Assembly: GCA_011321815.1 (NCBI GenBank)
Contig: DROS01000023.1
Location: 27,653-91,652 of the forward strand
Length of the DNA stretch: 64,000 bases
From: Gammaproteobacteria bacterium
GTDB lineage: Bacteria; Pseudomonadota; Gammaproteobacteria; SZUA-152
Direction of reading: 5' to 3'
Part shown: piece by piece, positions 1,459-37,043 of the stretch
How the letters are laid out: every line of letters begins with the position of its first letter
Position numbering within the stretch: position 1 is the first letter of the stretch
Made by a program: the position numbers and the translations under genes
The notes under the pieces: model-generated
What the model was told of the DNA's origin: nothing
The model's database searches: none
Seen by the model: the letters and a program-made list of their open reading frames with translations, nothing else

Positions 1459-1512
1459 GTGGCCTCGCAATAAATTATATTCTGTAAAATCTCTGGCTAG
1501 GAGGTGTTAACA

Positions 1513-3828: not shown

Positions 3829-4081
3829 ATTCCTCTCCTTTTGTAGTTATGGCCTTACTATACATACCCAAAGCGATCAGGATTCAGACGTTATGCACAA
3901 GCGCATTAATGCCTGCCAATATGGCAATATGTAACATCATCAGCAATGCTGTTTACCAGCATTATTCTGTTAATGTACTGCCAAAATCACATGATGAAAG
4001 TCCCGGCGATCCACTGATAATCTATGATTATTTTCAGTAGTCCCTTCGTCCTTTCACTCGTAGTATGCTATCGATAATGAG

Positions 4082-4131
4082 AAAATACGCAATCCATGTT
4101 ACTTGTCCATTCTTGCTCTTTTTCTTTAAAA
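4082..4131 (+). repeat. Left copy of a 50-bp direct repeat flanking the PKS cluster
   Basis: aaaatacgcaatccatgttacttgtccattcttgctctttttctttaaaa matches 36577-36626 at 49/50. Weaker similarity extends left to 4065 (vs 36560). Confidence 0.95.
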
Positions 4132-4156
4132 AAGAATCAGACTACAAACATGTCAC

Positions 4157-4204
4157 TGTCCCGTTAACCCCCCTTGCTCTTTGAAAGAAAAAGTTAACGG
4201 GACA
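4157..4204. repeat. 12-bp perfect inverted repeat with a 24-nt spacer
   Basis: TGTCCCGTTAAC (4157-4168) and GTTAACGGGACA (4193-4204). Confidence 0.85.
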
Positions 4205-4405
4205 ATATGAAAACTTCCAATCAAATAATCGATTATTCGCCTTTTCATGCGCTACCCAAAAATGGAAAACAAATAATTTGTGCGAATTACGTACAAATCT
4301 GTTTTTATCTGGCTACCAATCCTGGTATGAGGAATGAAAATCCATCACGGTAATCACAATTTACGACGCCTTGATTTCAGGCAGACACCGTGCTGAAAAA
4401 TTAAA

Positions 4406-5341
4406 TTACAAATCAATACCACTGGCCGCTCTTCCCTTTTCCAGCCAACGGGCACAATCCGGTGACAAAGTCTTTTTTACTGCGGTGTGGTACAGGTCCA
4501 GGTCTTCATCATTCAAAAACTCACGCCACAAACCGCTGCCACACTTATACATATAATCACTTGGCCCATCTCTTAACACAACGTTCATTTCGGGTAATAT
4601 CTTGTCCATATTTTTGTGGATTTCTTCAAAACGGGTCCGCTGCCTGATGCCAGGAAGGTGTTCTTCATCAATGGTGATATCAAGAAAATCGGCAATACGT
4701 TTTATTTCACCTTCCGTATCATTTAATAAATCCTCGAAGTGCACCAGCAGGATATTCGGCAACTTTCTGAAAGACCACCAGCTTTGTGCATGATCAAGGT
4801 GGGACCAGTAAGGATATCCCTGAGTTTCCCATTCGAACCATGATTGTGAAATCCATTTCCGCCAGAAGCTTTTATCATCGCCCACATCAGGAGGAAATGA
4901 TCTGCCTATCAAGTCATCATAATCCGCTGCCTTTTTTATGATCTCGGCGGAAAGCCCCCTGTGATGATGCAATAAAGACATGAATGCATCACGTGTATCA
5001 CGGCCAACAACGATATACTTGAGCTGCTCAAAAAATGTTAAGCCATTCAAAGGCAGATGGGATTTTATTGATCGACGATGAGTCTGGGCCTCCAATGTTG
5101 CCTGCATGGGTTCAAAGGGACTAAAGCGCAATTCATACCAGGGGGAAATCTCACCAATAGGCCCGGGAATATTTCCATCCTGAAAAATCAGATTGGCGAC
5201 AATTACCTGGGTCCAGGTTGTGCCAGCCCTTTGTGATGTTGTTACCACCACATCGCCTTGCCGCGGCGAGAACCGATCCCATCTCTCGGGATCAAACACA
5301 TGGTGAACGCTATAATCATAGGTTTTTACGGGTTTTTCCAT
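4406..5341 (-). CDS. PAPS-dependent sulfotransferase (Sulfotransfer_1 / aryl-type)
   Basis: 5'-PSB-like loop DVVVTTSQRAGTTW, catalytic KSHLP, 3'-PB motif VGRDTRDAFMS, and LLVHFEDL. Confidence 0.9.
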   Translation of the reverse strand: MEKPVKTYDYSVHHVFDPERWDRFSPRQGDVVVTTSQRAGTTWTQVIVANLIFQDGNIPGPIGEISPWYELRFSPFEPMQATLEAQTHRRSIKSHLPLNGLTFFEQLKYIVVGRDTRDAFMSLLHHHRGLSAEIIKKAADYDDLIGRSFPPDVGDDKSFWRKWISQSWFEWETQGYPYWSHLDHAQSWWSFRKLPNILLVHFEDLLNDTEGEIKRIADFLDITIDEEHLPGIRQRTRFEEIHKNMDKILPEMNVVLRDGPSDYMYKCGSGLWREFLNDEDLDLYHTAVKKTLSPDCARWLEKGRAASGIDL

Positions 5342-5407
5342 AATTGTATGCTCCTGAAGTCATTGGTGGTAAACAAGTGCCTATATAACCTGTCCTGGGG
5401 TCAGCTG

Positions 5408-6388
5408 TTATACATAAGCAGTGGAAAATGGTATCTGGTTGCGCTTCATTGCATCGAGCAGCTTGGCATAATTCGTTTGACTGTTATTAAATGGCGTTAT
5501 CACCGGGAAGACATTCAACGCAGACTGTTTCCCCCGCCAATGGCTCACCAGGTTGGCCATAGTACCGGTGGGACCAAGATCAATATAACAATAACGCTCA
5601 TTATTAACGATTGACGTAAGGGCCTCCATAAGACGTATGGGTTCACGTGCTGTTTGCCAGAAGTGATCTCCATCCAGATATTCAATGAGGCCAGTGGTTA
5701 CGGTGGAATACAGGGGGATTTGTAATTTGCGGAAAGCGATATTATTCAACACGCCAGCATAAGCACGGTGAGCCGGGTCGATATTTCCTGAATGGTAACC
5801 AAACGCAACAGGAAGGGGTTGAAAACAAATATTCTCGCGGCGTAAGTATTTTTCTGCTTCGCGTATACCGTTAATGCTGCCTGCTATGACAAAATGTTTC
5901 CCATGACTGTCAAAGGCAATATCTGTTGAATCATACAAAATATCATTATTATGATAGATACTGACATCATCAAGTACCGCCAGCATGGCGCCAGACTCAC
6001 AGTGAGCATCAAAACAATCTCCTGCACTTGCAACCAGATGCACTGCTGTTTCGAACGTCATTCCTCCTGCGACAACCACAGCTGTATATTCCCCCAGGCT
6101 CATACCACACACCACATCGGGCATAATGCCTTCTTGTTGCAGTGTTTCTGCCAAAGCATATTCTATGGTAAGCAATGCTATATTTGATAAGCGGCAGTCG
6201 CTGAAATTATCTGATTTATGCTTTCTCGGGTCATACACAACATCAAGGATTGAACATCCGGTGACATCATGAACTATCTTCGCTAAACGCAGCATATTAT
6301 GCTCGAATGCCGGATGACATACTCGCAGATCATTTCCCATATGGTAATATTGGGTTCCCTGCCCTGAAAACAAAAAAACATTTTTCAT
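5408..6388 (-). CDS. AT-fold acyl hydrolase (PedC/PksD-like proofreading enzyme)
   Basis: FLFSGQGTQYYHMG N-terminus typical of the AH clade; nucleophile elbow GMSLG; GYHS instead of the malonyl-AT AFHS. Confidence 0.72.
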   Translation of the reverse strand: MKNVFLFSGQGTQYYHMGNDLRVCHPAFEHNMLRLAKIVHDVTGCSILDVVYDPRKHKSDNFSDCRLSNIALLTIEYALAETLQQEGIMPDVVCGMSLGEYTAVVVAGGMTFETAVHLVASAGDCFDAHCESGAMLAVLDDVSIYHNNDILYDSTDIAFDSHGKHFVIAGSINGIREAEKYLRRENICFQPLPVAFGYHSGNIDPAHRAYAGVLNNIAFRKLQIPLYSTVTTGLIEYLDGDHFWQTAREPIRLMEALTSIVNNERYCYIDLGPTGTMANLVSHWRGKQSALNVFPVITPFNNSQTNYAKLLDAMKRNQIPFSTAYV

Positions 6389-6409
6389 GTTAAAAATATT
6401 TTTTGTTGA

Positions 6410-9400
6410 TTAATCGGAAAACCACTGGCTCAGCAGTTTATTGATCTTTTTGTAGTGAAACAGGCTCAGAAAATGATGCCCATTTTTTATTTCATGATAT
6501 TCAGCGTCTGGTATTTTTTCGCTCAACTCCCGTGCAAATTTTGGCGGCATCAATACATCATCACCGCCACTGATAAGCAAAGTTCTGGCCCGGACATGCT
6601 CCGCTGATTCAACATGCCTGAAACGTGCAATCATCATAAAATAACTGTCAAGAATGCGTCGATTGGTAGTACACCAGACAAAACGTTCAATATGCCCTTC
6701 TTTTCTGAACGCCTTTATCTCGGGCATTTTGCGCAAAAAACCGGGCAGCTTCTGGAAATTTTCCTCAAATTCTTCAGCGCATTTAATGGAGAAATCCTCC
6801 GCTGAAATTGTGTATTCCTCAGATGACCAGGAGATGGTTGTGGTACTGATGAGCACAAGCTTGTCTACATATTGCGGATAATGTTTGCAAATGGTTTGCG
6901 CGACAAATCCCCCCAAGGACCAGCCGACCCAATGGTTTTTCTTATTCTGGATAATCTGACGTGTGACAAGCTCATCAATAACACCTGTCAGGATACCTGC
7001 CAGCTGTTCAAAATTATCAAGACCATCAACCCAGTCACTGCCGCTCAACCCCGGGTAATGAGGCACAATAATCCTGTATTTCCCACTCAGCCCCTGTAGT
7101 TGGCGAATCCAGATGACAGCACTGGAATTGAAGGGTGGCAGCAATATTACTGTCGGGCCTTCACCGCACACCAGACATTCAATGCGAACTCCATTCACTG
7201 ACACATTTTCAGTCATTATTTTATGGGTTACCCCGGAGCTGTTGTGGTAGGCATCCACATATCTTTTGATCGGCGCCAGTGTTTCTCCAAACTCCAGCGC
7301 ACCAATATCACCGACATCTTCTTTCTCAGGTGTTGGCGGATTATCATCAACCGATGATTCCGGGGCAGCCTGCCCATTGATAGTCGCCAGCGTATCAAGA
7401 TGTGAACTGAGCAGGGTACTGGTGTTGAATTCAAAAAGGGCAAACATATCCAGCGTCGGGTAAAACCGGCAAAGCTCAGTATGGATTTTGGTACCCATAA
7501 TAGAATCAATCCCCAAATCACCGAAAAGCGTTTTATCGGTGTAAACCTCGGGGAGCGCACCTAAAACCCGCTTCAGGGTGTCACGTACCCGTGTTAAAGT
7601 ATCGGTGCTTGCAATATCCAGGGCTGAAATATCTGGCGCCGCAATCGCCTGATCTGGGGCAGTATCTGTAACAGATACATCCACCATAGAATTTTTACCC
7701 TCTGTCACAGGGCTGACCAAGTCCGGCCGGAAAATATAACCCGGCAAATATGCACGTTTAGCCTTGGGGTCATGCTGGAAACCTTTTACCTTGCCAACTA
7801 CCCAGTTTTTCGCCACCGCCAGAAGCTCGGTAATACTTACCCCCATTCCCATCAATTCACTATGACCGGTTTCCTGCTCTTCGCCTGATATCATGGTGGA
7901 ATCAATACACCCTTCCAGATAAACTTTGAGCCGGGTTAACAATACATCCATGGAATCATCACAGATCAGCGCAAAGCGGTAACGACCGGCGGAACGTCCG
8001 CATTGTAATGTTGCGGCAATATTACGCACATTAAGTGCGGTGTTTAACAAGGCTTGTTCCGAACGAATGTATTGGTAGGTAACCCGTACCATATCAACAA
8101 GTTGTTCAGGCGTAGCGGCACTGAATGGAATAATATATTTAAAGCCCGATTCGTAATCAGGTTCTGTAACCTGAAATGATTCCGGCGCTTGTTCCAATAT
8201 CAGGTGTACATTGGTACCACCAGCCCCAAAGGAGCTGATGCCCGCCCGCCGCACAGGTTGTGATTCGCTCACCGGCCAGGGAGCCAGTTCTTTTTGTACT
8301 TTGAAAGGGATACGTGAAAAATCAATATTGGGATTCAGATTTTCATGATGCATCACATTGGGAAAATACTGTTGACTCTTTAATTGAAGTATTACCTTTG
8401 TGATCTGGGCAATGCCCGCCGCTGCTTCAAGATGACCAATATTCGACTTCAGCGAAGATATGGGACAACCTTCCGGCGGCACATTTTTGCCAAAAGCCTC
8501 GGACAGTGCCGACATTTCAATGGGGTCACCCAACGAAGTACCGGTACCATGACACTCCACAAAGGAAATACTTTGTGGCGATACCCCTGCGGCATCAAAT
8601 GCCTTGCGAATAGTGTCGCGTTGCGCATCGGGATTTGGCACTGTAAATCCCTGGGTACGGCCATCATTACCTGCTGCAACACCCTTGATGACAGCCAGCA
8701 CATTGTCACCATCCTCCTCAGCGCACTCAAGGGATTTCAACAAAACCATTCCCACCCCTTCACTGGGCACATAGCCGGTACCGCCCTCTGCAAAGGCACG
8801 ACAACGGCCATCTTTACTCAAGGCATTCTTATCGGAAAGAAATTCGTATTTACTGCGATGCAGGTTAAGATTTACGCCACCTGCCAGGGCCATTTCACAC
8901 AACCCAAAGCGGATAGCATTATAAGCATCGGCTATCGCATACAGTGAGGACGAACAGGCGCAATCAATTGCAATTGATGGCCCGGTAAGGTTGAAAAAAT
9001 ATGAAAGCCGGTTGGCATAGGAAAATATTTGTGAACTATAAGGCAACATATCGCCTTTACAGCGGTTGGATTCCGCAACAAGCTCGCTGTACTCATGAAA
9101 GGATGCACCAATATAAACACCAACATTACTGCCCTTGCCTCCCACCCACTGTACAGGATTATAACCAGCACTCTCGAAACATCGCCAGGTTTCCTGTAAT
9201 AACAATCGTTCTTCAGGATGAGTCATCAGCGCATCCCGAAAACTCATATTAAACTGTCCATAGTCGAAGTTCATCGGCTGGGAGAGAAACCCACCCCAAC
9301 GTAATTCATCCCCGGCAGCACGGTGTGTGTCGGGTACGGCTTCAATACAATCCCGTCCTTCTGCAAGTAATTCTGCAAACTGCAATACATTTTCGGCCTG

Positions 9401-11851
9401 GGGATAGCGGCCCGACAAACCAATAATGGCAACATCACTCACTGATGATCGTGCTGTCGCCTTGTGTGTTTCACTATGTAACCAGACCGAAGCCTTCGCA
9501 GCAGATCGTCGCTCCTTGCTGAGACTCAAACCGGGACTGCGCGCATCAATACGTACGGCGGCATCACGGATGGAACGCGCGGAATAAAATATTACGGGGT
9601 CCCTAAAACCGAGCAATGGTTCCAGGCGGGCAGTCAGCTCAGTAATAACCATAGAATTCAAGCCCAAATCGGTGATAGTCGCATCGGGGTCCAGGTTTTT
9701 CAGAGGGACTTCGCCAATCTCCGACAGATACCGACACAATATTTCAACAATCTCATCTTCCTTTGAGGTCTGTTTTTCCGCAACGGCCAGAATACGGGAG
9801 ACCTGTTCTATATCTGCTCCTGCCCTGGTGATTTCTTCAACCTTTTGCTGTTGAACCCCAATACGTGAAGGTATGTGTTCATCATATTGGTATGCGCCAG
9901 AGCTTACATGGCATTCTTCCATTGTAACCTTGTCCGCCGGGAGAGGTTGCTTTGCGTTGGATATACCGGCGCCACCTGTCTGCTTTAGCGAAGCCCCTGG
10001 CAAAAATAAATCAGGCAGCGGAAAATGCTGCGCGGCGAAGGGATAACCCGGTAAAGGTAACCGCCCTGGATTGGATTCATAGAATGTAGACCAGTCAATA
10101 TCTTCACCGTTGACCCAGGCTGCCGCCAGCCGATCCAGCCTCCCATTGGCAATCCAACGTTGGGTGAGCAGGTTTATTTCCTCTGTTTCCAGAAGGGCTG
10201 TCGCATTGTTGCAAATGCCCCGAAAAAAATTGTTCAACGTATTATCAGCCTCAAGACTGAACGCAGCCATCTGTTCCGCCAATTTCTTAAGATCACTTAC
10301 CACAAAAGCGACCCGGTGAGTCATCGGCACCCTCCCCAGCTGCAAGGTAAAGGCCAGACGCAACAAATCTTCTTCTTTTAATTTCGGCAGGTAATCTATT
10401 AATTCACTGACTCGCGCCTTGAGTTGGCCCTCTGTTTGCGCGGACAATACGATGCAATACGATTGATGGTTTAACCGTGCGGACTTTTCACTGGTAATAT
10501 TTTCGTTGGCTGTAAATTCTTCAACAATCACGTGCGCATTGACCCCACCTGCCCCAAAGGAGCTGACGCCGGCACATCGGGGCATATCGGCATAAGTTTC
10601 CCAGTCCGTGGTCTGGGTGATAAAACGAAACGGTGTTCCTTCAAGATCAATACCGGCATTTTGATTGTGCAGATGCAGGGTCGCAGGCAGGGTTTTGTGC
10701 TGCAATGCAAGAATCACCTTCAATAAACCGGCCATACCTGAAGCAGCCTCGGCATGCCCGATATTGCTTTTGACTGAACCAATACCGCAATGCGCCACCT
10801 CAGAAGCATCAAGGTTTTTCTGTTGATAAAGCGTAGAGAAAGCTTCCTTTAATGCGGTAATTTCCACAGAATCGTCCGAAGCACTGCTTGCACCATGGGC
10901 TTCGATATAACCAATTGCACGTGGGTCCACATCCGCCTTTTTATAAGTGTCCAGCAGAAGTTGTATTTGAGCTCTGGAATTCGGCACGGCAAGTGATGCA
11001 CTGTTACCGCTGTGGTTAACACGGCTGCCCCGGATTATCGCATGAATATGGTCACCGTTACGCTCTGCCTCAGCAAGCGGTTTAAGATACATGGCCCCAA
11101 ACCCTTCTGCGCGCACGTAACCATTGGCATCTTCATCAAATGCCTTACAACAACCATCAGGGGATAACACACCGGCACGACTGAATGATGTATGGCAAGT
11201 CGGCATCAGCAACGCATTTACACCACCAACAATAGCCGCATCACAATAACCGTTGTAAATGGCTTGCAACGCATGATCCACGGCCACCAGAGAACTGGAA
11301 CATGCCGTATCCACCGGTTCACTGGGGCCAAGCAGATCAAAAAAACTGGAAATACGGTTGGCCAGCATGGAAAAAGCATTGCCTGTTGAGGTGTACTCCA
11401 GCACATCCGTATCACTCATGCCCAGACGTTCAGCATAATCATGGTTTGTTACTCCGACAAACACACCTGTACGTGATCCGGAAATATCACAGGGACGAAT
11501 ACCGGCATTTTCCAGACAGTTCCACACCGTCTCCAGGCATTTACGATGCTGAGGGTCCATCAGCGCTGCTTCGTGTGATGAAATATGAAAAAAATCGGCA
11601 TCGAAGCTCTCAATACCGTCGACAAAACCACCCCAGCGTGTGGCTGTTTCATTTTGTATATCACTGGTATAGTTACGCCAATCCCAACGTTCAGTGGGAA
11701 TTTCAGTGATAACATTTCGCCCTTCCATGAGGTTCTGCCAAAAGACTTCAAGATCAGGCGCACCAGGAAATTGACCGCTTATTCCAACGATGGCAATAGC
11801 AGAATTTGTACATCCTGTTACTTTTTTTACGGTTTGTTTTGGCGCAGACAC
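6410..11851 (-). CDS. trans-AT PKS3: KS5(degenerate)-ACP-KS6-ACP-TE (alpha/beta hydrolase)
   Basis: KS5 has DTACSS / EAHGASSASDD / NIGHAE. ACP GLNSM. KS6 has DCACSS / HGTGT / NIGHLE. ACP GIDSI. Hydrolase has GWSLG and a C-terminal GHH. No AT, KR or DH. Confidence 0.92.
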   Translation of the reverse strand: MSAPKQTVKKVTGCTNSAIAIVGISGQFPGAPDLEVFWQNLMEGRNVITEIPTERWDWRNYTSDIQNETATRWGGFVDGIESFDADFFHISSHEAALMDPQHRKCLETVWNCLENAGIRPCDISGSRTGVFVGVTNHDYAERLGMSDTDVLEYTSTGNAFSMLANRISSFFDLLGPSEPVDTACSSSLVAVDHALQAIYNGYCDAAIVGGVNALLMPTCHTSFSRAGVLSPDGCCKAFDEDANGYVRAEGFGAMYLKPLAEAERNGDHIHAIIRGSRVNHSGNSASLAVPNSRAQIQLLLDTYKKADVDPRAIGYIEAHGASSASDDSVEITALKEAFSTLYQQKNLDASEVAHCGIGSVKSNIGHAEAASGMAGLLKVILALQHKTLPATLHLHNQNAGIDLEGTPFRFITQTTDWETYADMPRCAGVSSFGAGGVNAHVIVEEFTANENITSEKSARLNHQSYCIVLSAQTEGQLKARVSELIDYLPKLKEEDLLRLAFTLQLGRVPMTHRVAFVVSDLKKLAEQMAAFSLEADNTLNNFFRGICNNATALLETEEINLLTQRWIANGRLDRLAAAWVNGEDIDWSTFYESNPGRLPLPGYPFAAQHFPLPDLFLPGASLKQTGGAGISNAKQPLPADKVTMEECHVSSGAYQYDEHIPSRIGVQQQKVEEITRAGADIEQVSRILAVAEKQTSKEDEIVEILCRYLSEIGEVPLKNLDPDATITDLGLNSMVITELTARLEPLLGFRDPVIFYSARSIRDAAVRIDARSPGLSLSKERRSAAKASVWLHSETHKATARSSVSDVAIIGLSGRYPQAENVLQFAELLAEGRDCIEAVPDTHRAAGDELRWGGFLSQPMNFDYGQFNMSFRDALMTHPEERLLLQETWRCFESAGYNPVQWVGGKGSNVGVYIGASFHEYSELVAESNRCKGDMLPYSSQIFSYANRLSYFFNLTGPSIAIDCACSSSLYAIADAYNAIRFGLCEMALAGGVNLNLHRSKYEFLSDKNALSKDGRCRAFAEGGTGYVPSEGVGMVLLKSLECAEEDGDNVLAVIKGVAAGNDGRTQGFTVPNPDAQRDTIRKAFDAAGVSPQSISFVECHGTGTSLGDPIEMSALSEAFGKNVPPEGCPISSLKSNIGHLEAAAGIAQITKVILQLKSQQYFPNVMHHENLNPNIDFSRIPFKVQKELAPWPVSESQPVRRAGISSFGAGGTNVHLILEQAPESFQVTEPDYESGFKYIIPFSAATPEQLVDMVRVTYQYIRSEQALLNTALNVRNIAATLQCGRSAGRYRFALICDDSMDVLLTRLKVYLEGCIDSTMISGEEQETGHSELMGMGVSITELLAVAKNWVVGKVKGFQHDPKAKRAYLPGYIFRPDLVSPVTEGKNSMVDVSVTDTAPDQAIAAPDISALDIASTDTLTRVRDTLKRVLGALPEVYTDKTLFGDLGIDSIMGTKIHTELCRFYPTLDMFALFEFNTSTLLSSHLDTLATINGQAAPESSVDDNPPTPEKEDVGDIGALEFGETLAPIKRYVDAYHNSSGVTHKIMTENVSVNGVRIECLVCGEGPTVILLPPFNSSAVIWIRQLQGLSGKYRIIVPHYPGLSGSDWVDGLDNFEQLAGILTGVIDELVTRQIIQNKKNHWVGWSLGGFVAQTICKHYPQYVDKLVLISTTTISWSSEEYTISAEDFSIKCAEEFEENFQKLPGFLRKMPEIKAFRKEGHIERFVWCTTNRRILDSYFMMIARFRHVESAEHVRARTLLISGGDDVLMPPKFARELSEKIPDAEYHEIKNGHHFLSLFHYKKINKLLSQWFSD

Positions 11852-11910
11852 TGATTTTTCCTCTTAAGGTTGCACAGGGGTGGGGTTAACTGCCGACACT
11901 CATCTTTTCT

Positions 11911-13050
11911 TCACTCATTGACCGGCTGCACATCGCCAAGATCAAAATATCCCTTATAACCCTGCATATAAATTGTTGCTTTTCGACCAAATAATGCAAT
12001 AGCCTGTGTTCGTGTTTCCAACACATCATCGTGATTTTTAACGGATACCCTGGTTCCCACAGGATAAGCGGCATTCCAGGCGGCAATCGTTTCCGCTGTA
12101 TTTTTAACCCCGGATTCGCTGTGACTGGTAACATCACCCTGAATGGCTTTCGCCTCTGGATCTTTTGCGGCAGATGCATCAGGCACAATTTCTGTATTAC
12201 TCTGGCCAAACTGTGTCTGTATTTTCTCAACAAGTGCAGTCAATACATGACCGGCACCTGTTTCCTCAAACTCCGTCACTCCCTGCTCAAGCATATAAGA
12301 AACACTGTCCAACCATTTAACTGGCCGGATAATCTGGGATGTCAGGTTTTCAATAATTTTTTCCTGTCGGTAAGGTTTTGCATGAACATTGGAAATAACA
12401 TCAATGGTTAAAGGGGAAAATTCAAAACGGCGAACATATTTCTTAAATTCAACCGCAGACGATTTCATATACCGGGAATGAAAAGCACCACTGGTATTTA
12501 GCGGAATGAACTTTATCCCATCTTCCGTAAAAATAGATTGCGCCCTGTTAATATCCTCTTCCAATCCCGAAATAACCGTTTGGTCATAGGAATTATGATT
12601 TGCAATATCTACCGTGGATAAATCATTGTTCTTCAGTAATTGGCTTATTTTCTTTTTGGTAGACCCCAAAATTGCAGCCATTGCACCTTTCGGCGCCAGG
12701 CTCATCAGCTCACCTCTCCTTTTAACCAGCTTCAATCCATCTTCAAAACTGATAGCGCCTGATGCCTGGAGTGCGTTATATTCACCGAGACTGTGGCCTG
12801 CCAAAAATTCCGGAAGATGTCCCGTTTTTTCGATTTTGTCCAGATAAGACATCGCACTGACCACATATAGTGCAGGTTGTGTGTACTGCGTAAAACCCAG
12901 TTGACGATCAGGGTCCTTAAGACACAGCTCCACAATTGAATACCCTAATATGTCATCGGCCGTTTGAACCATATCAGCATATTTTTCAAAAAGGTCTGCG
13001 CCCATTCCTTTATACTGAGATCCCTGACCAGGAAATATATAAGCTTTCAT
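11911..13050 (-). CDS. trans-acting malonyl-CoA:ACP acyltransferase with a C-terminal extension of about 100 aa
   Basis: FPGQGSQ, GHSLGEY, AFHS (malonyl-type). The AT is followed by a low-complexity linker and a small extra domain. Confidence 0.93.
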   Translation of the reverse strand: MKAYIFPGQGSQYKGMGADLFEKYADMVQTADDILGYSIVELCLKDPDRQLGFTQYTQPALYVVSAMSYLDKIEKTGHLPEFLAGHSLGEYNALQASGAISFEDGLKLVKRRGELMSLAPKGAMAAILGSTKKKISQLLKNNDLSTVDIANHNSYDQTVISGLEEDINRAQSIFTEDGIKFIPLNTSGAFHSRYMKSSAVEFKKYVRRFEFSPLTIDVISNVHAKPYRQEKIIENLTSQIIRPVKWLDSVSYMLEQGVTEFEETGAGHVLTALVEKIQTQFGQSNTEIVPDASAAKDPEAKAIQGDVTSHSESGVKNTAETIAAWNAAYPVGTRVSVKNHDDVLETRTQAIALFGRKATIYMQGYKGYFDLGDVQPVNE

Positions 13051-13154
13051 ATTTAAACCCTCCTTAATTCATTATGAAACGTTGTTTCCCTGAAAGATCC
13101 TGCTGCAATACCGGCTAAGGGATAAAAATCATCCAATGTGATGAAACACTATAA

Positions 13155-13904: not shown

Positions 13905-13951
13905 GACATATCTCCAATAGGTTATTCTAACTTATGATTCAGGACAAAATA

Positions 13952-15978: not shown

Positions 15979-16033
15979 ATAACTATCCTTTTACTCTGAT
16001 TATATTTTTAAAATATCACACGTATTTTTATAA

Positions 16034-17317: not shown

Positions 17318-17360
17318 CCCATTTCCTTGCAATTACGTGATAATTACGGCTATTTGTAAT

Positions 17361-17600: not shown

Positions 17601-17620
17601 AATCAACTCTCCCTTATTAA

Positions 17621-24832: not shown

Positions 24833-24905
24833 TGATTTTTGTGGAAATATTAAATACTTTATAAAAAGTTTTGATTTATGCCGGACTCTTCCGCTTTAAC
24901 AATAA

Positions 24906-27900: not shown

Positions 27901-30900
27901 GCATCCTTCAGGCGTTTGAGATAAACAGCCCCAACACCTTCTCCCGGAACATACCCATCTCCGCCACTGCCAAAACTTCGGCATTTTCCATCACTGGAGA
28001 GAAAATTATTATTACTTAGCCATAAATATTTACTCGACGAGAGTGATATGTTGACCCCCCCGACAATAGCACTGTGAGTTTCTTTCCTTTTTAAGCTTTC
28101 ACAAGCCAAATGAAGTGCTGTTAAAGAGGCAGAACAAGCCGTATCCACGGCCAAGCTTGGCCCACACCAGTCAAAGAAAAAAGATACTCTGTTTGCGATG
28201 CTATAAAGCAGCCCGTGTGGCCTTTGCAAATTACCTTTGAAGGTCTGTTCAACGCCCAATGAAATATAGGGTTGCCATAATGCGCCAACAAAAACGCCTA
28301 CAGACTTCCCTTGTAAATTCCTGTAGTTATATCCTGCATCTTCGATGCTCTCCCAGGCCACTTCAAGGAACATACGTTCCTGTGGATCAATTATTGATGC
28401 CTCTCTTGGTGAAATATTAAAAAACAGAGGATCAAATTTATCAATATCATCCAGAAATCCTCCCCACTCTTCAGGCAACAGATTTTTATCTGGAAACATC
28501 TTTTGTAATGCCTGGCGATCAAATCTTGATTCAGGTATTTTGCTGATACTGTCTCTGCCAGATTTTAAATTTTCCCAGAATTCCGCAAGATTTTTTGCCT
28601 CTGGGTATCTTCCGCTCATACCAACAATTGCAACCGGTTCCTTGTCCATAAAATCTTCCGGAACAGTCTCATCGTTGTCAGCGACATTCACAAAAATGTC
28701 ATTACCCGCGGGCGCGTCTTCATCATCTTGATGATATTCCCCCACACCATCAGTTACCGTTGTTTTTTCATCTGGAGAACCTGTACCAGAATTCTCCGCT
28801 CCTATTATTCTTTTCAGGGTATTCTGGTGATTCGCCAAAAAATATTCTGCCAACTCTTGAATACTCTTATACTCAAAAAATAATGTTTTTGACAAATTTC
28901 CAAACATTTGATCAAGACGCCGATTAAGATCAACGATCATTACAGAATTTATGCCATATGTTTCCAGTTGAACATCGGCTTCAATATCACAAGGCGGCAT
29001 TCCAATGGCCTCGGATAAAGTCTCTTTTAATATCTCACTTACCTGTTCAACGGTTATATCTGAAGGCTTAGCATCAGAATTATACTTGCCTGTTGGCTTT
29101 GCTTTTTGTGCTTCGGAATATTCATTTGTATGTGTCAGATTGCGCAATGACAATCCCTTGACTTCAACAACAATATTCCCATCTGTCGTAATAATACTTG
29201 CATTATATTTTTTGATTTCATTATTTTCTTTATTTAAGGACATTGTTTCTGTATGCACATAACATTCTTTTGGTATTTTCTTATGTACAATAATTTCATC
29301 AATTGCTATGGGTATAAACTTGCTGCTATTTATCCCGTCTGGCTTGTTGTTAAGCAATGCCGTTTGCAAAACGCCAGTAAGCATACTGGGATGGAGAACA
29401 TAATCCTCATAGGTATCTGCTATAAACTCGGGCAATTTCAAGTGCGATAGCGCCTCTCTTTCGCTCAAATTTACCTGAATCATCGGCTGAAAACTCGGGC
29501 CCACATGCAATCCTTCAGAGTGTATAAATTGATAAATTTCCTCTGTTTTCCGGATTACAGAACAACGGCTTTTAATTTCATCAAAATCAATTGTTCCCAA
29601 TGGGCTTTCATCAATATTTGAAATCAATTTTGTATGCACTTGACCAAGTGCATGAAGCACTCTTCCACTACCTTCTGCGTGGGTTATTTCATATTCATAG
29701 AAATCGTCTTTTTTCATCAGGCGTAAATCCGCCTGAATAGGATCGCCGGGTGTGGAAAGCTGTTTTGCCCAATAATTATTAGACAACTTTAATACATTCT
29801 TACCCTGTTCCAACAAATTTCCCGCCTGCAAAGCCATTTCTATATAGCAGGCTCCCGGAACGTTATACAGGCCTTCCACAACATGATCCTTCATAAAAAA
29901 CTCTTCATCAGATAATGTTTTTTGGAAAATCAATTTGGAACTGTCTGAAAAATCCACATCAATCAACGCCTGCCCTGGCGTGAACCATGATTCCTCTTGG
30001 CCCTCAGCAGTATTCCATATGGAATTATCAAGCAATCTTTCACTGTAATTATCCCAAAGATATCCCGATATTTTTGACACTGTATTAAGATCAAAAAATA
30101 AAGTTGGGTCCACATCCAGAGAAAAAACCTTATTGATTGACGCTGTGATCTTTGAAATCCCGACGGAATCAATTCCATAATCTGTCAGATTATCCGAATC
30201 ACCGATATCTTTTGAATCTTCACCTGAATTTGAAATTATTTCTCGTATTTTTTCTTTCAAGGATGCTTCATTCGTTAAATTGTCTTTATAAAAAGAATAA
30301 TCACGTGATAATACACTCAGGTGTTTTTCGATCTTATATTGATCCCCTTCAATCACAATTAACTGATCAGGAAGAGATGTCATTCCCTGGCGCAAAATAT
30401 TGTCAAAAATGAATAAACCCCTATCATTCTCCAACGCTTTCATTCCAAAAACGTCCCACAGGTGATCCTCTTCTTCCTTTATCACCCCAATTCCGCCGTT
30501 TTTCCATAATGGCCAATTAATCGCAATCGCTCTGCCAGATCTTTTTCCCTGTTCCGTCAATTGATTCCTGTATGACGAAAATTCATCTAAAAAACTATTT
30601 GCTGCCGCGTAATCACATTGCCCTTGATTGGGCATAATAGAGGCAATTGATGAAAATAAAATGAAAAAATCCAGTTGATCCTGTTTGGTTGCCTTATCCA
30701 AATTCACTGTTCCCATTATTTTAGGCGCAATGACATTGTCAAATGATTCCCTGGTTTTATTTATTATGTAAGCGTCTTCAATCAGGCCCGCACAATTAAG
30801 CACACCATTTAGGTGAATACCTTTCTCCCGAAATTCTTGACAGGCATTTATTAAAGAGGTGTTATTGTTTATATCCGCAGCGTAATACTGTCCATCTCCA

Positions 30901-33900
30901 CCCAATTTGCATAACTGCGCAAGCTTTCTTTCAATTTTTTTATTTTTCTTTGAGCGTCCAATCAGGATCAATTTTGCGCTATAGTTTTCGGCAAGGTATT
31001 GCGCAAACAGATAACCCAACCCTCCCGCACCACCGGCTATCAGATAAGTTCCATTCTGTTTGATTATGGATTCATTCGATGATGTTGAGAAATTTTTATG
31101 CGCCACAATCATGCGGACTTTTCTTTGCCCATTCGCATATTGAACTTCATTGAGGGGTGCATTCCGGTAAAAACCCAATTCCTGCATGACTGCATTGGCG
31201 ATTTTTTCTGGGTTATATTCACCTAACCCAACAGAAGTAATATTGATGTGGGGATTCTCAAATTTCAAGGTTCTTGAGAACCCTCCCACTGATGCATGCA
31301 GGCATGATGCCACAGTCTCACGCATGGAATATAAATATAAAATACGAACCCGCTTTGATAGTTTAGACAGTATCAGGGACTGTGTTATCGACAGTAATGA
31401 CTTTATTCCAAAATCAATATTATGTGATACCGATGGGTTATTTTTATAATTCCATTTGTATATTACTGATTCCGGTTCTACATCTTGGCTTTTAATATCA
31501 TCCCACAATAAACCAAGTGAATCTCTGTTTTCCCGATTAACTGTATAAGAGTTTTCGCCTGTCTTTTTAAATTTATCCCCCATTTTTACTAAAATAACCG
31601 TCTGATATTTTCCTGCCTTACGCAAAAAATTTGTCAGCGATGGATTAGTATCAAAAACAATTACAGTGGAAAGTCTTTCACAATGCATTCCTGATTTTCG
31701 TGGAATCCATTGTGGAACATAATGCAATATATTGTTTTCCATATTACCTTTCTCATCATTTACAGGAATATTGTTCTGGGAAGTATTATTTGATGATATT
31801 GATGGCCTATATATACGCTTAACAAAGTCAGAAAATTCAATAATAATATTTCCTTTCCGATCACATAAATACATATTAAAAACAGTCTGACCGTCTTTTG
31901 ATGACTTGGCATTTATGGTTGAATACACGTAACAGGAATCAGGAATTTTTCCGTGCAATGTAATACTCTTTAAATAAAAAGGGACCTTCTGCTTCTGCTT
32001 TTCTTCTGCGTTTAATACCTGTAATGCAACCACAGATTGAAAAACCCCATCCATCATGGATGGTTCAAGAGCATTGCCCGTGGTGTTAAGGGTAAAAATA
32101 TTGATGTCAGAAGACTGTTTTAACTCACACAATATTTCCGTTTTGTTATAGTTGCAGGATTTTATTGTCTGAAAACTCTCACCATAAAGTAACCCGTTAT
32201 TTTTAAATTGATGGTACAACTCCCTGGGAGCCTGGGTTGATTGACATCGATTTTTTATTTTTTCAATATCAAGTCTACGCAATGGCTTTTCCTGACAACC
32301 ACCAATAACAGTCCCCGTACAATATATTTTTCCGTCACTTTCCAATGACAGGTTGTAGCTATTATCCGAATCATTTTTGCTATATTTCACATTGACACGA
32401 ACGTCCTGCTCTACTTTAATCGCTTGCGCCCAATAAACGTCCCTTAATGACTGGACAGGTTCCTGACTTATTTTTTCGCCAATTTCCTGAAAAATATCCA
32501 GACATTTTACCCCCGGAACAATATTTACGCCTTTGACAATGTGATCACGTATAAAATAATCCGACTTTTGGAAAATTTTATATGCAGAGATTCCCTCTTT
32601 TGTTTTAGTTGACTTTTCATTCGTTTCTTCATCCGGTGGCGTTTTATTTTCATCTGGACGAGGAAACCAGCAATGCTTTTTCTGGAATGGGTATGCCGGC
32701 AATTGAATTCTGTTTCCTGACTGATATTGACTTAACCCTTTCCAGTCAACATCACTACCTTTTACCCAGCATTTGGCGAATTCATCAATATTGTCAGATT
32801 GCGGAACAAATTCAGCTATTTTATTACGTGTATCACCAGAAAAAATCCGGTCGCTATGCTTGTTTTCGGTGAATGCTTTCAAAAGCCCCAACAGCTGCCG
32901 ATAATCGTCGGCTAAAAATATAACTCGTTTTTCCAACGCTTCACGCCCACTTTGCAACGTAAAACATACATCTGAAAGAGAACAGTATTCCTCTCTTCCA
33001 TTCAGGTAGTTATAAACCGATGCAACGTATTCATGTAATTGCTCATGTGTTTTGGCCGAAAGTGGAACTACATATTTTTTATCTGTTAATAATGGATTAT
33101 CAGTTGATTTTTCTCTATCAACAAAAGGCGGTTCTTCCACTATTATGTGCGCATTAACCCCCCCCATTCCAAAAGAACTGATTCCCGCCCGCAGTGGATG
33201 TTCAACGCCATCCATAGTGACGTTATTCCATTGCTGATTTTTATCCACAATATAAAAAGGACTGTCATCCAATTTAATATATGGGTTCAATTTCTCAAAA
33301 TGCAGCAATGATGGTATTCGTTTATATTTAATGCTGAGCAAGACCTTGATAAGCCCTGCAACGCCCGCAGCACTTTCAAGATGGCCGACATTTGTTTTGG
33401 TTGAGGTCAAACCACAAAAAGGGGATTCATCTCCACTTAAATAAGGCTTGTATGCCTGCTTAAGCGCATTGATCTCAATGGGATCTCCAAGAGGTGTCCC
33501 TGTACCATGTGTTTCAATATACCCGATGGTTTTTGGATCGACATTTGCGGCGGAAATTGCAGCGCTGATGGTGGCGGCCTGTGCCGAAACTTTGGGGGCA
33601 GTTAAAAAATTTGACCGTCCTCCGTGCTTTACTGCTGAACCTTTGATTACCCCCAGAATATTGTCGTTATCTGACAATGCCTGATCCAAAGATTTGATAA
33701 AAACGACACCGACACCTTCGCCTCGGACATATCCATTAGCCTTGGCGTCAAATGATCTGCAATTACCGTCCTCTGACAGCATTCCGGATTTGCTGTGTGA
33801 GATATACATCGTTGGACTGAGGATAGCATTTACCCCGCCAACAACAGCGGCTTCACAAAATCCATTATTAATATCGTTAACGGCATTATCCAGCGCAACC

Positions 33901-34451
33901 AGAAAGCTGGAACATGCCGTATCAACAACTTCACTTTTACCTTGAAAATCAAATAAATATGATACGCGATTTGCAAGAATTGAATGTACTGTACCCGTTG
34001 ATAAAAAAGAGATAATCGGAATCTGATTTTCCCTCATCAGCTCCGCATAATCGTTTTTCGACACACCGGCATACACGCCAATATCTCTTCCTGACAGGCT
34101 TTTCGGGTTATATCCCGCATCCTCAATTGCATGCCATGCTGACTCCAGAAACAACCTGTGTTGCGGGTCCATATAGCTTGCTTCACGTGGTGATATATTA
34201 AAAAAAAGTGGGTCAAACATATCCACATTTTCAATAAACCCGCCATATTTTATGTTTGTTTTACTGTCTTCGCTGGTGGGGTCACCGTAATAGTCTTCCC
34301 AGTTCCACCGGTCCCCTGGTATTTCAGTCACACAATTTTTTCCGGCGATTAAATTATTCCAATATTCTTCATAATTCTTCGCACCGGGAAATCGGCAAGC
34401 CATCCCAATAATTGCAATATCACCAACTTCCCTGCTGTTTTTTGTTTTCAT
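24906..34451 (-). CDS. trans-AT PKS1: KS1-DH-KR-ACP-DH*-ACP-KS2-DH0-ACPbeta-ACPbeta
   Basis: KS1 and KS2 have intact C/H/H. DH HIVKGVNIVP...MDG. KR GGAGGLG / LIED / YAAAN. ACP GIDS. DH HVVEGLYNVP...LTG. ACP GINS. Two ACPs with GLDSIVGVEW (Trp flag of beta-branch acceptors). Confidence 0.94.
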   Translation of the reverse strand: MKTKNSREVGDIAIIGMACRFPGAKNYEEYWNNLIAGKNCVTEIPGDRWNWEDYYGDPTSEDSKTNIKYGGFIENVDMFDPLFFNISPREASYMDPQHRLFLESAWHAIEDAGYNPKSLSGRDIGVYAGVSKNDYAELMRENQIPIISFLSTGTVHSILANRVSYLFDFQGKSEVVDTACSSFLVALDNAVNDINNGFCEAAVVGGVNAILSPTMYISHSKSGMLSEDGNCRSFDAKANGYVRGEGVGVVFIKSLDQALSDNDNILGVIKGSAVKHGGRSNFLTAPKVSAQAATISAAISAANVDPKTIGYIETHGTGTPLGDPIEINALKQAYKPYLSGDESPFCGLTSTKTNVGHLESAAGVAGLIKVLLSIKYKRIPSLLHFEKLNPYIKLDDSPFYIVDKNQQWNNVTMDGVEHPLRAGISSFGMGGVNAHIIVEEPPFVDREKSTDNPLLTDKKYVVPLSAKTHEQLHEYVASVYNYLNGREEYCSLSDVCFTLQSGREALEKRVIFLADDYRQLLGLLKAFTENKHSDRIFSGDTRNKIAEFVPQSDNIDEFAKCWVKGSDVDWKGLSQYQSGNRIQLPAYPFQKKHCWFPRPDENKTPPDEETNEKSTKTKEGISAYKIFQKSDYFIRDHIVKGVNIVPGVKCLDIFQEIGEKISQEPVQSLRDVYWAQAIKVEQDVRVNVKYSKNDSDNSYNLSLESDGKIYCTGTVIGGCQEKPLRRLDIEKIKNRCQSTQAPRELYHQFKNNGLLYGESFQTIKSCNYNKTEILCELKQSSDINIFTLNTTGNALEPSMMDGVFQSVVALQVLNAEEKQKQKVPFYLKSITLHGKIPDSCYVYSTINAKSSKDGQTVFNMYLCDRKGNIIIEFSDFVKRIYRPSISSNNTSQNNIPVNDEKGNMENNILHYVPQWIPRKSGMHCERLSTVIVFDTNPSLTNFLRKAGKYQTVILVKMGDKFKKTGENSYTVNRENRDSLGLLWDDIKSQDVEPESVIYKWNYKNNPSVSHNIDFGIKSLLSITQSLILSKLSKRVRILYLYSMRETVASCLHASVGGFSRTLKFENPHINITSVGLGEYNPEKIANAVMQELGFYRNAPLNEVQYANGQRKVRMIVAHKNFSTSSNESIIKQNGTYLIAGGAGGLGYLFAQYLAENYSAKLILIGRSKKNKKIERKLAQLCKLGGDGQYYAADINNNTSLINACQEFREKGIHLNGVLNCAGLIEDAYIINKTRESFDNVIAPKIMGTVNLDKATKQDQLDFFILFSSIASIMPNQGQCDYAAANSFLDEFSSYRNQLTEQGKRSGRAIAINWPLWKNGGIGVIKEEEDHLWDVFGMKALENDRGLFIFDNILRQGMTSLPDQLIVIEGDQYKIEKHLSVLSRDYSFYKDNLTNEASLKEKIREIISNSGEDSKDIGDSDNLTDYGIDSVGISKITASINKVFSLDVDPTLFFDLNTVSKISGYLWDNYSERLLDNSIWNTAEGQEESWFTPGQALIDVDFSDSSKLIFQKTLSDEEFFMKDHVVEGLYNVPGACYIEMALQAGNLLEQGKNVLKLSNNYWAKQLSTPGDPIQADLRLMKKDDFYEYEITHAEGSGRVLHALGQVHTKLISNIDESPLGTIDFDEIKSRCSVIRKTEEIYQFIHSEGLHVGPSFQPMIQVNLSEREALSHLKLPEFIADTYEDYVLHPSMLTGVLQTALLNNKPDGINSSKFIPIAIDEIIVHKKIPKECYVHTETMSLNKENNEIKKYNASIITTDGNIVVEVKGLSLRNLTHTNEYSEAQKAKPTGKYNSDAKPSDITVEQVSEILKETLSEAIGMPPCDIEADVQLETYGINSVMIVDLNRRLDQMFGNLSKTLFFEYKSIQELAEYFLANHQNTLKRIIGAENSGTGSPDEKTTVTDGVGEYHQDDEDAPAGNDIFVNVADNDETVPEDFMDKEPVAIVGMSGRYPEAKNLAEFWENLKSGRDSISKIPESRFDRQALQKMFPDKNLLPEEWGGFLDDIDKFDPLFFNISPREASIIDPQERMFLEVAWESIEDAGYNYRNLQGKSVGVFVGALWQPYISLGVEQTFKGNLQRPHGLLYSIANRVSFFFDWCGPSLAVDTACSASLTALHLACESLKRKETHSAIVGGVNISLSSSKYLWLSNNNFLSSDGKCRSFGSGGDGYVPGEGVGAVYLKRLKDAIRDGDHIYGLIKGTSINHGGKTNGYTVPNPVKQTELILSTLDKSGISPEVISYVEAHGTGTSLGDPIEITGLQKAFSNYTDKKEFCAIGSVKSNIGHLEAAAGIAGLTKLLLQLKHKTLVPSINADELNPNIDFSSTPFIVQKELKSWGPFTDKDNNGQEKEMPLRAMLSSFGAGGSNAHAIIEEYRNVNSLATQNIGGNNKNQEIIVSRLSSGKEIIIPLSAKTVDRLKLHADNLLNYIEINETNILNAGDSYRGNAIQLEDIAFTLQTGREEMDERVVFLVKDVSDLKDKLRNYISIEGVASSKIISGNIGSGRKTFNVFSLDNELNNVFDNWIYSGDGLKIATLWINGIEVNWDQLYHTRKPEKVSLPTYPFRKDRYWIAETDSEFMRNTATLQQVTQIHPLLHENTSDLYAQRYSSTFTGKEAYFEKSRLNEEMVLSSMAYLEMVHAAISQASGIKEQQQKTVFLSDVEWLECFTVKDQRKLHITLTLDEDLNDNIENVKFEIYSAGEKQGENSVFHARGCVYVDDREKKEVLDITFLLKKMSRHLDPNACDEILGELEYIKNKGKIKDIYIGGSSALIKYESYNLAHNSNYTFTLNPDSLETVLTAAIVVSKKTDKSTTDNTLLSDLSSIQSFIPMMLGTMNIYQKCSGNMFAWIKNVRHSVLPVDGIDRNMVEMDVDFIDSKGYVCARAIGLGFESMDVSKRADVSRPINHFFESPTRIPEKPTAITLLNLQSVHQVKSQNFDLNVVDAQHEENYTISLMDSDTDEAVITDTVDTSASLERLISQKYNFVKVLSESLARALYMELNDVDIDRQFTEMGLDSIVGVEWINELNQKLSLDVNATIVYDYPTIRDFARYLENKMASQDVQPASDYNTPPKSRHRRNKRLSKKSPESDNVIIPKVDDLQKLLAISLAKALYMDESDINIELPFIDMGLDSIVGVEWIKVINDQFNTSILATAVYDHTNLREFSRYLEKVIKNKVSETSSGVEMVD
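25051..25427 (+). repeat. 32-nt identical core in the two tandem beta-branch ACPs
   Basis: tttatccattcaacaccgacaatagaatccag at 25051-25082 and 25396-25427. Confidence 0.9.
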
Positions 34452-34566
34452 AGTATTTTTTTCAATCTGTATTTATCATTTTCAAGTTGATTCAACGCAG
34501 CAAATGCTGAAACCGAATACCATTATTTTCTATCTGTTTTTTGATGATATTTTTTTGCAAATTCAT

Positions 34567-36000
34567 TTATCCGGAAATACTGACCGGCGACCGTGTTTCT
34601 TTCCTGTAGTCCGTTAGACTGCCGACAACATGAACTTCGCCTCCCTTTATAAAACCCAGGTCACCCGTTCGCAAATACGGTCCATCCTCAGAGCCCTCAG
34701 GATAAACGTTAAATATTCTTTCTGTTTCAGCTGGCTGGTTCCAATAACCCAGAGCATTACATTTACTACTGACCAGAATCTCTCCTAATTCGAGCTCACT
34801 ACACCTTGTCAAAGTCCCTGGAATAATAACCACTACCCGTGTATCGCTTACTGGCAGCCCACAACTTGTGATTTTGGCTTCTGCATGACTATCCTGGTTA
34901 TTCTCTGCCATTCCCCCGGATAAGCGCTGCATCGACTTGCGTGGAATAATTGTGGGATTTTTAGGATAATTGCTTTCTGATGCCACATAAGCTGATTCCG
35001 CCAACCCATAAAATGAAGTCAAGGCCATTTCCTTTAAACCACAATAACTGAATTTTTTAAAAAAACTGTCCATCGTTTCTTTATTCACAGATTCTCCACT
35101 GCTATATGCAGTTTTCCACCCGGACAGATTCAGGCTATTTTCTTTGGGGTCAGACACCTGGTCGACGCACATGCGGTATGCAAAATCAGGGGCGCCACTG
35201 AATGTAATTTCATATCTGGTTATTGCATTCAGCCAATTTCCAGGGTTTTTATAAAAATCAAACTGCGAACATATATATCCCCTGTACCCGCAATAAAGCG
35301 GCTGAAGAATACCTAGCGCCAAACCTAAATAATGATAATTTGGTAACCAGTGCACCGATCTGCTCGATGCAGTTAATTTATAGTCATTTTTGATGGATTC
35401 ATGTACGGAATTAATATTGTCATGACTTATCATGACAAATTTCGGGCTTCCTTCTCTGGCGCTGGCTGATGTTCGCTGCAAATAAGCGGTACTATTACTG
35501 TCGACTACCGGCATGCTCCAATGATTGATTAAATCATCATTTACGTCCTCGACCGCCAATAAAATTTTCTGGGATAATTTACTGGATTTGAAAAAACACT
35601 GTACCACCTCATTTAATATTGAGGTGCTTGTAAGCACAACATTGCTGCCGGTTTCTTCAATGATATTTTCAACGTGACATATCCGGGCATCATCATGTTG
35701 AGTGGCCCGCGGTGGAGCTGTTACCACCGGCACTGCGCCGCTATACATTACTCCCAGAAAAGCATAAATAAATTCCAGACCTTGAGGGAAAAGCAGTAGG
35801 ACTCTATCCGACGGGTCAATTATTTGTTGCAGCCTTCCCGCAACTGCTGTTGCCCGTGTATACAGCTGTTGATTGGATAATTGATTTACCACATCGCATT
35901 GATCATCCAGATAGGCAAAGGCAAGCTTGTCCGGCGCCTGTTTAACTCTTGCGGCCAATGCTTCCATTAAGTTAGCTGGTTGTTGCATTATGTCTCTCAC
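34567..36000 (-). CDS. Fatty acyl-AMP ligase (FAAL)-like protein, degenerate and C-terminally truncated
   Basis: FAAL-like N-terminus (DRVLLLFPQGLEFIYAFLG, YGLAE, YLRTGDLGF). P-loop altered to YLQRTSASAREGSPKF. Stops about 20 aa after the hinge (GSLTD), at 477 aa. Confidence 0.82.
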   Translation of the reverse strand: MRDIMQQPANLMEALAARVKQAPDKLAFAYLDDQCDVVNQLSNQQLYTRATAVAGRLQQIIDPSDRVLLLFPQGLEFIYAFLGVMYSGAVPVVTAPPRATQHDDARICHVENIIEETGSNVVLTSTSILNEVVQCFFKSSKLSQKILLAVEDVNDDLINHWSMPVVDSNSTAYLQRTSASAREGSPKFVMISHDNINSVHESIKNDYKLTASSRSVHWLPNYHYLGLALGILQPLYCGYRGYICSQFDFYKNPGNWLNAITRYEITFSGAPDFAYRMCVDQVSDPKENSLNLSGWKTAYSSGESVNKETMDSFFKKFSYCGLKEMALTSFYGLAESAYVASESNYPKNPTIIPRKSMQRLSGGMAENNQDSHAEAKITSCGLPVSDTRVVVIIPGTLTRCSELELGEILVSSKCNALGYWNQPAETERIFNVYPEGSEDGPYLRTGDLGFIKGGEVHVVGSLTDYRKETRSPVSISG

Positions 36001-36576
36001 TCAACTTCATCCTTTATGTTGATATTGAATAGAGTACGACAAAACCTGCATTTAAAACCGGATACCGTATCGATGCCGTTATTGATATCAATATAAAAAC
36101 AGGGCGCTTCTTTTAACAAAAATATAATGGAGTTAAAAATATATTCATGGCGAACATCATTGGGAAACACCGGTTCCCCAATGTTTTGCTCAAAATAAAG
36201 CCCTTCACACTAAAATTTATCATTAATAGCGTTTTTGAAAGTTACTCCAAAACTGATTCTTGAATAACTAAGGCAGTTACTGTGTTGTTAATCCTCTCTA
36301 ACAGTAAACTCTGTTTCATAAAATCAGTGTCTTAGTGGGATCAGTTACCGCAGTTCCCTTTATTTTTTGTGAGGAAAGTATTATCGCTGTTTCAGTACGT
36401 TTCCCTTATATTCAAAAGTATTGACCCCTTTCAATACGGCGCTACACACCATCACCTTGCCAGCGCATTATCGGATTTTCACCATGAAAGGCGAATTGGT
36501 TCTTGATTGGGCTGGCGGCGCGTATCTGTAACGACCCCTTAATTTTCCCTGTTCATTGCATGTTATCCATAATTCA

Positions 36577-36626
36577 AAAATACGCAATCCATGCTACTTG
36601 TCCATTCTTGCTCTTTTTCTTTAAAA
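36577..36626 (+). repeat. Right copy of the 50-bp direct repeat flanking the PKS cluster
   Basis: aaaatacgcaatccatgctacttgtccattcttgctctttttctttaaaa, one mismatch vs 4082-4131. Confidence 0.95.
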
Positions 36627-36646
36627 GATTACGCGCATAGAAACCG

Positions 36647-36934: not shown

Positions 36935-37043
36935 AGCCCGGCAACATGGTTACCCGGACTGTTAACATGATGTTATTACTTGATGCTGAATTACTCTGTT
37001 GAGCCGTAGCAGTCACAACCCCACGACGGCGCCTGCAAAAACA

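Follow-up and report, generated by a model that had tools for sequence, protein, structure and literature searches.

The question raised by this locus is whether a pair of long direct repeats marks the ends of a mobile island or belongs to the genes beside which the repeats lie. The window, by which we mean the whole 64,000-nt stretch that was analysed (contig DROS01000023.1 of assembly GCA_011321815.1, from a gammaproteobacterium of the SZUA-152 lineage), holds a trans-acyltransferase polyketide synthase (trans-AT PKS) operon that begins with a FAAL gene and is bracketed by two near-identical copies of one non-coding element. The original prediction left two accounts standing, namely attachment-site scars of an excisable unit or a duplicated promoter module, and the evidence favours the second. 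As judged from comparative sequence analysis, the repeats are probably not island scars but paralogous copies of one cis-regulatory, promoter-like module, one in front of each of two transcription units of the cluster. The copy upstream of the FAAL gene is referred to below as the head copy, and the copy beyond the end of the operon as the tail copy; coordinates are collected in Table 1.

A repeat search of the window recovered the two copies as a direct repeat of 74 nt at 88% identity. Within it, a core (4082-4131 versus 36577-36626) matches at 49 of 50 positions, the lone difference being T/C at 4099/36594, while 12 of the 17 nt to the left of the core match between the copies, which lie 32,495 bp apart; the 49/50 and 12/17 matches and the spacing had been reported earlier and were reproduced from the sequence. 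On the plus strand, the right edge of the repeat is sharp and the left edge decays. With some 2e9 position pairs in 64 kb, each having a probability of about 1e-27 of matching at 49/50, the repeat is far beyond chance. Both copies are oriented in the same way as their downstream genes, and the order along the minus strand is histidine phosphatase, a 292-bp insertion, head copy, leader, operon, a spacer with a hairpin, tail copy, leader, and a gene for a 322-aa protein. ARAGORN found no tRNA or tmRNA in the window, in keeping with the earlier statement that the repeat is not tRNA-derived, and Pfam scans of all sizeable open reading frames (ORFs) agree that none encodes an integrase, transposase or relaxase domain. 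Similarly, no Rfam family matched the element at the gathering threshold.

The copies had been thought to enclose exactly the biosynthetic gene cluster, with 13 genes between them. We count 12 ORFs of at least 100 aa in this interval (FAAL, three PKS, ACP, KS, HMGS, two ECH, two AT and a sulfotransferase), and the 322-aa gene, which lies outside the tail copy, is linked to the PKS cluster by gene order in every lineage examined, whatever the arrangement. Homologues of its product span 99% to 39% identity. In the relatives with the 88% homologue (locus L012, GCA_021647705.1) and the 82% homologue (L024-L028), the gene is placed as in the window, in the order sulfotransferase, element, 322-aa gene, DUF302/IlvD. 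The 77% homologue (L015-L017, on a 748-kb contig) is instead encoded immediately before the FAAL-PKS operon, in a different chromosomal context with AraC/GyrI-like regulator, SSB and MACPF genes, and a diverged element that retains the anchor AGCAAGAATGGACAA is found approximately 430 nt upstream of it. As the 322-aa gene moves with the cluster and switches sides, the tail copy is therefore not the edge of an island.

The placement of the element is equally regular across relatives. Within 436 kb of fetched DNA, every occurrence of the 15-nt anchor of the element, AGCAAGAATGGACAA, lies upstream of either the FAAL operon or the 322-aa gene and reads in the same direction as the gene that follows; there are eight such independent places, spread over six lineages. 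Tail copies stand 289-294 nt from the start codon and head copies 612-771 nt. Orthologous tail copies are present in L012-L014 and L024-L028, and orthologous head copies are kept in L008, L018/L019, L020 and L007. L018/L019 and L020, in which the phosphatase is 81% identical, carry the cluster at the same site with a head element matching at 52/58 positions. A scan of genome contigs located the core in L007, from another gammaproteobacterial metagenome-assembled genome (MAG), 620 nt upstream of the orthologous FAAL; here FAAL and PKS are 62% and 73% identical to those of the window at the amino-acid level, the element matches at 54/58 positions, and its upstream neighbour is an AraC/GyrI gene in place of the phosphatase. 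When the head spacers of the window, L008, L018 and L020 are aligned, the element stands out as a block of approximately 63 nt at ≥90% in a spacer that is otherwise poorly conserved. The element is 90-93% conserved, as against 62-73% identity for the neighbouring proteins and divergence of the surrounding spacer. Exact-pattern scans matched only L007 and L008 among genome contigs, gave only copy 1 and two chance matches among metagenome contigs, and returned no match among viral contigs.

Three further observations concern these relatives. An AraC-family regulator gene whose product has a GyrI-like ligand-binding domain adjoins the orthologous cluster in L007 (1464-2333) and in L015 (6765-7634), and none is present in this window; the protein is a candidate regulator or self-resistance protein of the cluster. 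The stretch from the element to FAAL in L007 was searched for remains of the 322-aa gene, and none were found. Finally, L008 (WGED01000703.1) is a gammaproteobacterial PKS head-region contig binned in a MAG labelled Cyclobacteriaceae, which probably reflects misbinning.

The 3' third of the element, together with the sequence just after it, carries signatures that distinguish the two copies. The head signature, ...GATARYATGCAAYRA...GGG..., is common to the window, L008, L018 and L020, and the tail signature, ...GATAGCATACKAYGAGTGRAA..GAAGG...CTGA..., to the window, L012 and L024. Across species, head copies fall together and so do tail copies, which places the duplication before the split of these species. 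The 50-mer matches at 49/50 positions within the genome versus 44-48/50 between species; the near-identity within the genome would mostly reflect constraint, with perhaps occasional head-tail conversion at the 5' edge.

A site without the cluster was also available for comparison. L021/L022, whose phosphatase is 68% identical, retain the order phosphatase ... DUF302, IlvD, SH3, cytochrome c, and hold neither the PKS cluster nor the 322-aa gene at this syntenic position. The original prediction had looked to such an empty site for one remaining copy of the repeat; no element (at ≤22/58 core mismatches) or anchor (≤2/15) was found there, in what is a fairly distant relative with other genes filling the gap. 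The 322-aa gene is therefore part of the acquired DNA, and the element arrived as cargo instead of being a target already in place. Gene orders across the lineages show that the cluster has moved between chromosomal contexts during evolution, and the way in which it did so is not marked by the repeats.

The anatomy of the element is promoter-like. The minus-strand TGGACA-N16-TATTTT that had been noticed previously is seen in both copies, is invariant in all full copies, and points at the downstream gene, although a pattern match alone is weak evidence. An A-rich tract (AAAGAAAAAGAGCAAGAA) precedes it and is kept in all full copies, as is an alternative hexamer pair, TTGCGT-N16-TA(A/G)(C/T)AT, and the diverged L015 copy has a consensus TATAAT near the position of TATTTT. 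Conservation between head and tail stops approximately 15-20 nt past the hexamers, about where a transcript would begin, and a purine-rich, GGA-rich variable stretch follows each copy. The element folds no better than shuffled sequence on either strand (z of -0.1 to -0.7); together with the lack of an Rfam match, this makes a function at the DNA level a better fit than a structured RNA. No inverted repeats are present within or around the copies, and the flanks differ immediately on both sides.

Several other identities were considered for the element and set aside. A candidate conserved mini-ORF on the plus strand (MLLVHSCSFSLK...) was ruled out by loss of its ATG in L024. Sigma-54 and GacA-box readings were judged by eye, and neither the spacing nor a palindrome fits. 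The end of a miniature inverted-repeat transposable element (MITE) or insertion sequence does not fit, there being no terminal inverted repeats or target-site duplication, and a REP-like element or structured small RNA does not agree with the fold scores and the Rfam result given above.

On the favoured reading, the module is most likely a sigma-70-type promoter with an upstream activator or UP region, spanning about 60-75 bp, as its motifs suggest. The head copy would drive the FAAL-PKS operon and the tail copy the gene for the secreted 322-aa protein, both on the minus strand, and the latter gene would travel with the cluster as a fourteenth-gene-like member, probably under shared regulation. 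The copies would bracket the operon only because, in this lineage, the second unit follows it, as opposed to preceding FAAL in another. Their near-identity would then stem from strong purifying selection on protein-binding DNA, possibly with some gene conversion between head and tail, and not from recent integration. However, several points weigh against a promoter module. Both hexamer sets are only moderate matches, and shuffled sequence gave as many such sites; most promoters would require less than conservation at ≥90% over approximately 60 nt; the leaders, at 290-770 nt, are unusually long; and a probable third copy, described below, need not head a gene.

A more elaborate account, which we hold only tentatively and consider rather doubtful, makes the module the operator-promoter of a small regulon that would comprise the PKS operon, the 322-aa protein and at least one third locus, and that would be read by a cluster-associated, ligand-sensing regulator of the AraC/GyrI type. 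In relatives the regulator gene is a neighbour of the cluster; in this genome it would be located elsewhere or be missing altogether. The extreme conservation over approximately 60 nt could then arise from a multi-protein nucleoprotein complex, or from the beginning of a conserved regulatory leader RNA extending into the GGA-rich segment.

The number of copies per genome bears on a further alternative, in which the element is a small dispersed repeat, either a non-autonomous mobile element or a family of short RNA genes, that came to lie at the operon ends by chance or insertion preference and does not regulate the cluster. Copy number was inferred from metagenome contigs, and in four metagenome runs the core was found in approximately six flank contexts per run, that is, in more than two. 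This at first suggested a dispersed repeat with at least six copies per genome, a conclusion since partly withdrawn, as several of the extra contexts, with L012-like and L024-like flanks, proved to be the orthologous heads or tails of related species that occur alongside. One extra context, on contigs of 1.2-1.9 kb and with 3 mismatches in 59 relative to copy 2, does track the depth of the organism in all four runs (8.0 versus 7.7-8.4; 15 versus 13-16; 14.4 versus 15-18.5; 11.8 versus 12-15); its flanks read AATATCAATCGCTATATACGCAGCATGAAG | element | ACAGGAGGATAGGGAGAGGAGCCACTGAAA. It is taken as a probable third copy elsewhere in the genome, and no other extra context tracks the depth in this way. 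That third copy and the purine-rich, GGA-rich stretch after each copy are what a dispersed family has in its favour. Against it, the element has no terminal inverted repeats, target duplication, fold or Rfam match, the scans of viral, genome and metagenome contigs gave nothing beyond cluster-linked copies and chance matches, and the element keeps the same position and orientation beside the two genes from species to species. We therefore regard this alternative as unlikely.

The original prediction also proposed that RecA-mediated exchange between the repeats might lose or amplify the cluster. In its strong form, the 32.5-kb operon would be lost or multiplied at a biologically meaningful rate through recombination between the 50-bp identities, rendering production of the polyketide phase-variable. 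The idea is conceivable in principle, in that 49/50 identity in direct orientation is long enough to allow low-frequency homologous recombination, and the slight excess of identity within the genome over that between species hints at occasional exchange. Yet no observation supports it. None of the five lineages at this site, and none of the metagenomes examined, has lost either copy or the operon. The search for empty-site or circle joints that had been suggested returned no deletion or circle junction among the contigs of five metagenome runs, which is a weak negative given that assembled contigs hide rare variants, and contigs spanning a copy run on into the expected flanks. The suggested comparison of coverage likewise gave equal depth inside and outside the cluster (X1, 7.7-7.9 versus 7.3-8.4). 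A phase-variable operon is thus improbable at this locus.

Least probable of all, and largely refuted, is the account in which a circular PKS island integrated through site-specific recombination at a 50-bp target upstream of the 322-aa gene, leaving attL/attR-like scars and remaining excisable by an integrase supplied in trans: the direct repeats with one sharp and one decaying edge, the lower G+C inside than outside, and the different chromosomal contexts of the cluster, which must hence have moved in evolution, would all suit it, but the window lacks an integrase, tRNA or relaxase, the tail copy is internal to acquired DNA whose 322-aa gene is missing from the unoccupied site, that site has no element, L007 retains the element before FAAL despite different upstream neighbours, the duplication predates species whose flanking proteins are 81-88% identical, all five lineages at this site are occupied, and neither recombinant contigs nor a difference in depth was seen.

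Table 1. Positions of the module copies and of neighbouring features in the window
Feature	Position	Strand	Description
Head copy of module	36553..36626	minus	Minus-strand reading TTTTAAAGAAAAAGAGCAAGAATGGACAAGTAGCATGGATTGCGTATTTTTGAATTATGGATAACATGC...; ~610 nt upstream of FAAL start
Tail copy of module	4058..4131	minus	~290 nt upstream of 322-aa gene start
trans-AT PKS operon	4406..36000	minus	FAAL first (from 36000), sulfotransferase last (ends 4406)
322-aa gene	2860..3828	minus	Signal-peptide-like N-terminus, beta-sandwich body, no Pfam family
Head leader	36001..36552	minus	~550 nt non-coding, between head module and FAAL; scattered conserved patches
Tail leader	3829..4057	minus	~230 nt, tail module to 322-aa gene; moderately conserved in L012 and L024
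Post-operon hairpin	4150..4205	minus	11-bp stem (GTCCCGTTAAC...GTTAACGGGAC), between sulfotransferase gene and tail module
Repeat composite	36644..36935		292 bp of hairpin/MITE-like repeats, inserted 17 nt upstream of head module
Histidine phosphatase (CobC-like) gene	ends 37044	minus	Upstream flank of head copy

The remaining features of the locus complete this picture. G+C is 35-45% through much of the operon versus approximately 50% in the flanks, and the PKS cluster does look horizontally acquired. Exact-protein look-ups placed the same locus on hydrothermal-vent metagenome contigs, and short-read Logan contigs stop inside the repeat, as it is longer than the 31-base word of the assembler. 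The conserved patches of the head leader were seen on aligning the window, L008, L018 and L020, and the leader of L007 is homologous. The post-operon hairpin lies in a spacer of approximately 270 nt, the fold of 4125-4410 on the minus strand scoring z = -2.9; it may end the operon transcript, and is not found in the shorter spacers of L012 and L024. Its loop (4170-4190, minus strand) holds AAAGAGCAAGGGGGG, which echoes the 5' part of the module (AAAGAGCAAGAATGG) approximately 45 nt upstream of the tail copy and may either be left over from the duplication or be due to chance.

The 292-bp composite upstream of the head copy is outside the module. It consists of nested repeats with inverted arms such as TTGGTCTGTCAGCGCTCAGGGC / GCCATGGACGCTGACAGGCCAA, and is present in the window strain, while a strain of approximately 2% divergence (runs X3-X5, locus L008) has TCTG instead. 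Parts of the block reach summed contig depths of up to ~21,000x in metagenomes, and the repeat family is therefore hugely abundant in the community. Further out, a NERD/UvrD-like helicase gene (1504-2703, plus strand) encodes 399 aa in the window and 396 aa in L001, but its product reaches 620 aa in L024/L025, a related species. In L002 two ORFs stand in place of the one, and in L012 both the helicase and the adjacent cytochrome c gene are missing; this is probably decaying or variable flank DNA. At 59181-59366, a 15-nt tandem array (GTTCYGCTRCNGGTT, ~12 units) lies within a 241-aa ORF (58729-59454, minus strand) that has no Pfam match and probably encodes a low-complexity repeat protein.

The model of the 322-aa protein has a pLDDT of 81, with the beta-sandwich in its C-terminal half, and the protein has four invariant cysteines. 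Its fold gives only a weak Cu,Zn-SOD-like match (Foldseek E = 2e-4, TM ~0.45 to the target), and an assignment of function from this beta-sandwich match was dropped as uninformative. The gene for the 49% homologue (L023) adjoins two KAS III genes and not a trans-AT PKS. In L015, the spacer between the 322-aa gene and FAAL contains three to four tandem 14-nt units (GTTACCTAACAA-like) at 11103-11157.

Together, these results remove a tempting false lead, that of an excisable PKS island without an integrase, and redraw the boundary of the cluster to take in a secreted protein of no assigned family that is always found with it. A literature search for this cluster returned nothing relevant. The sharply delimited and strongly conserved promoter-like element could be used to study or activate the trans-AT PKS cluster of an uncultured vent bacterium in a heterologous host. 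Biologically, the case would be a fairly ordinary one, in which regulatory DNA is shared inside a gene cluster.

Three kinds of known system invite comparison. REP/BIME, ERIC and MITE sequences are, like the present element, short, non-coding and present in more than two copies per genome, and they likewise break short-read assemblies. However, the element described here is not palindromic, has neither terminal inverted repeats nor a stable fold, is very low in copy number, and is strictly tied in position to two genes. The colibactin pks island and the Yersinia high-pathogenicity island are integrase-borne, flanked by direct repeats and located at asn tRNA genes. The likeness to such islands lies in direct repeats of tens of bp on both sides of a low-G+C polyketide cluster. 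In contrast to them, this locus has no integrase and no tRNA target, its repeat does not lie at the edge of the acquired DNA and is missing from the unoccupied site, and, as a functional block, it has been conserved in different species and contexts.

The closest parallel is with the shared promoter or operator modules of biosynthetic gene clusters. Several operons of one cluster can share a regulator-binding promoter region, such as the boxes of pathway-specific activators. The present block differs in its unusual length (approximately 60 nt at ≥90%), in its distance of 290-770 nt from the start codons, and in the lack of a regulator gene beside the cluster in the window; its binding and promoter activity are predicted from the DNA sequence. 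Yet the resemblance is considerable: as in those modules, a single non-coding block precedes two units, always oriented alike, and its conservation far exceeds that of the spacer around it, and in two relatives an AraC/GyrI-like regulator gene lies beside the cluster.

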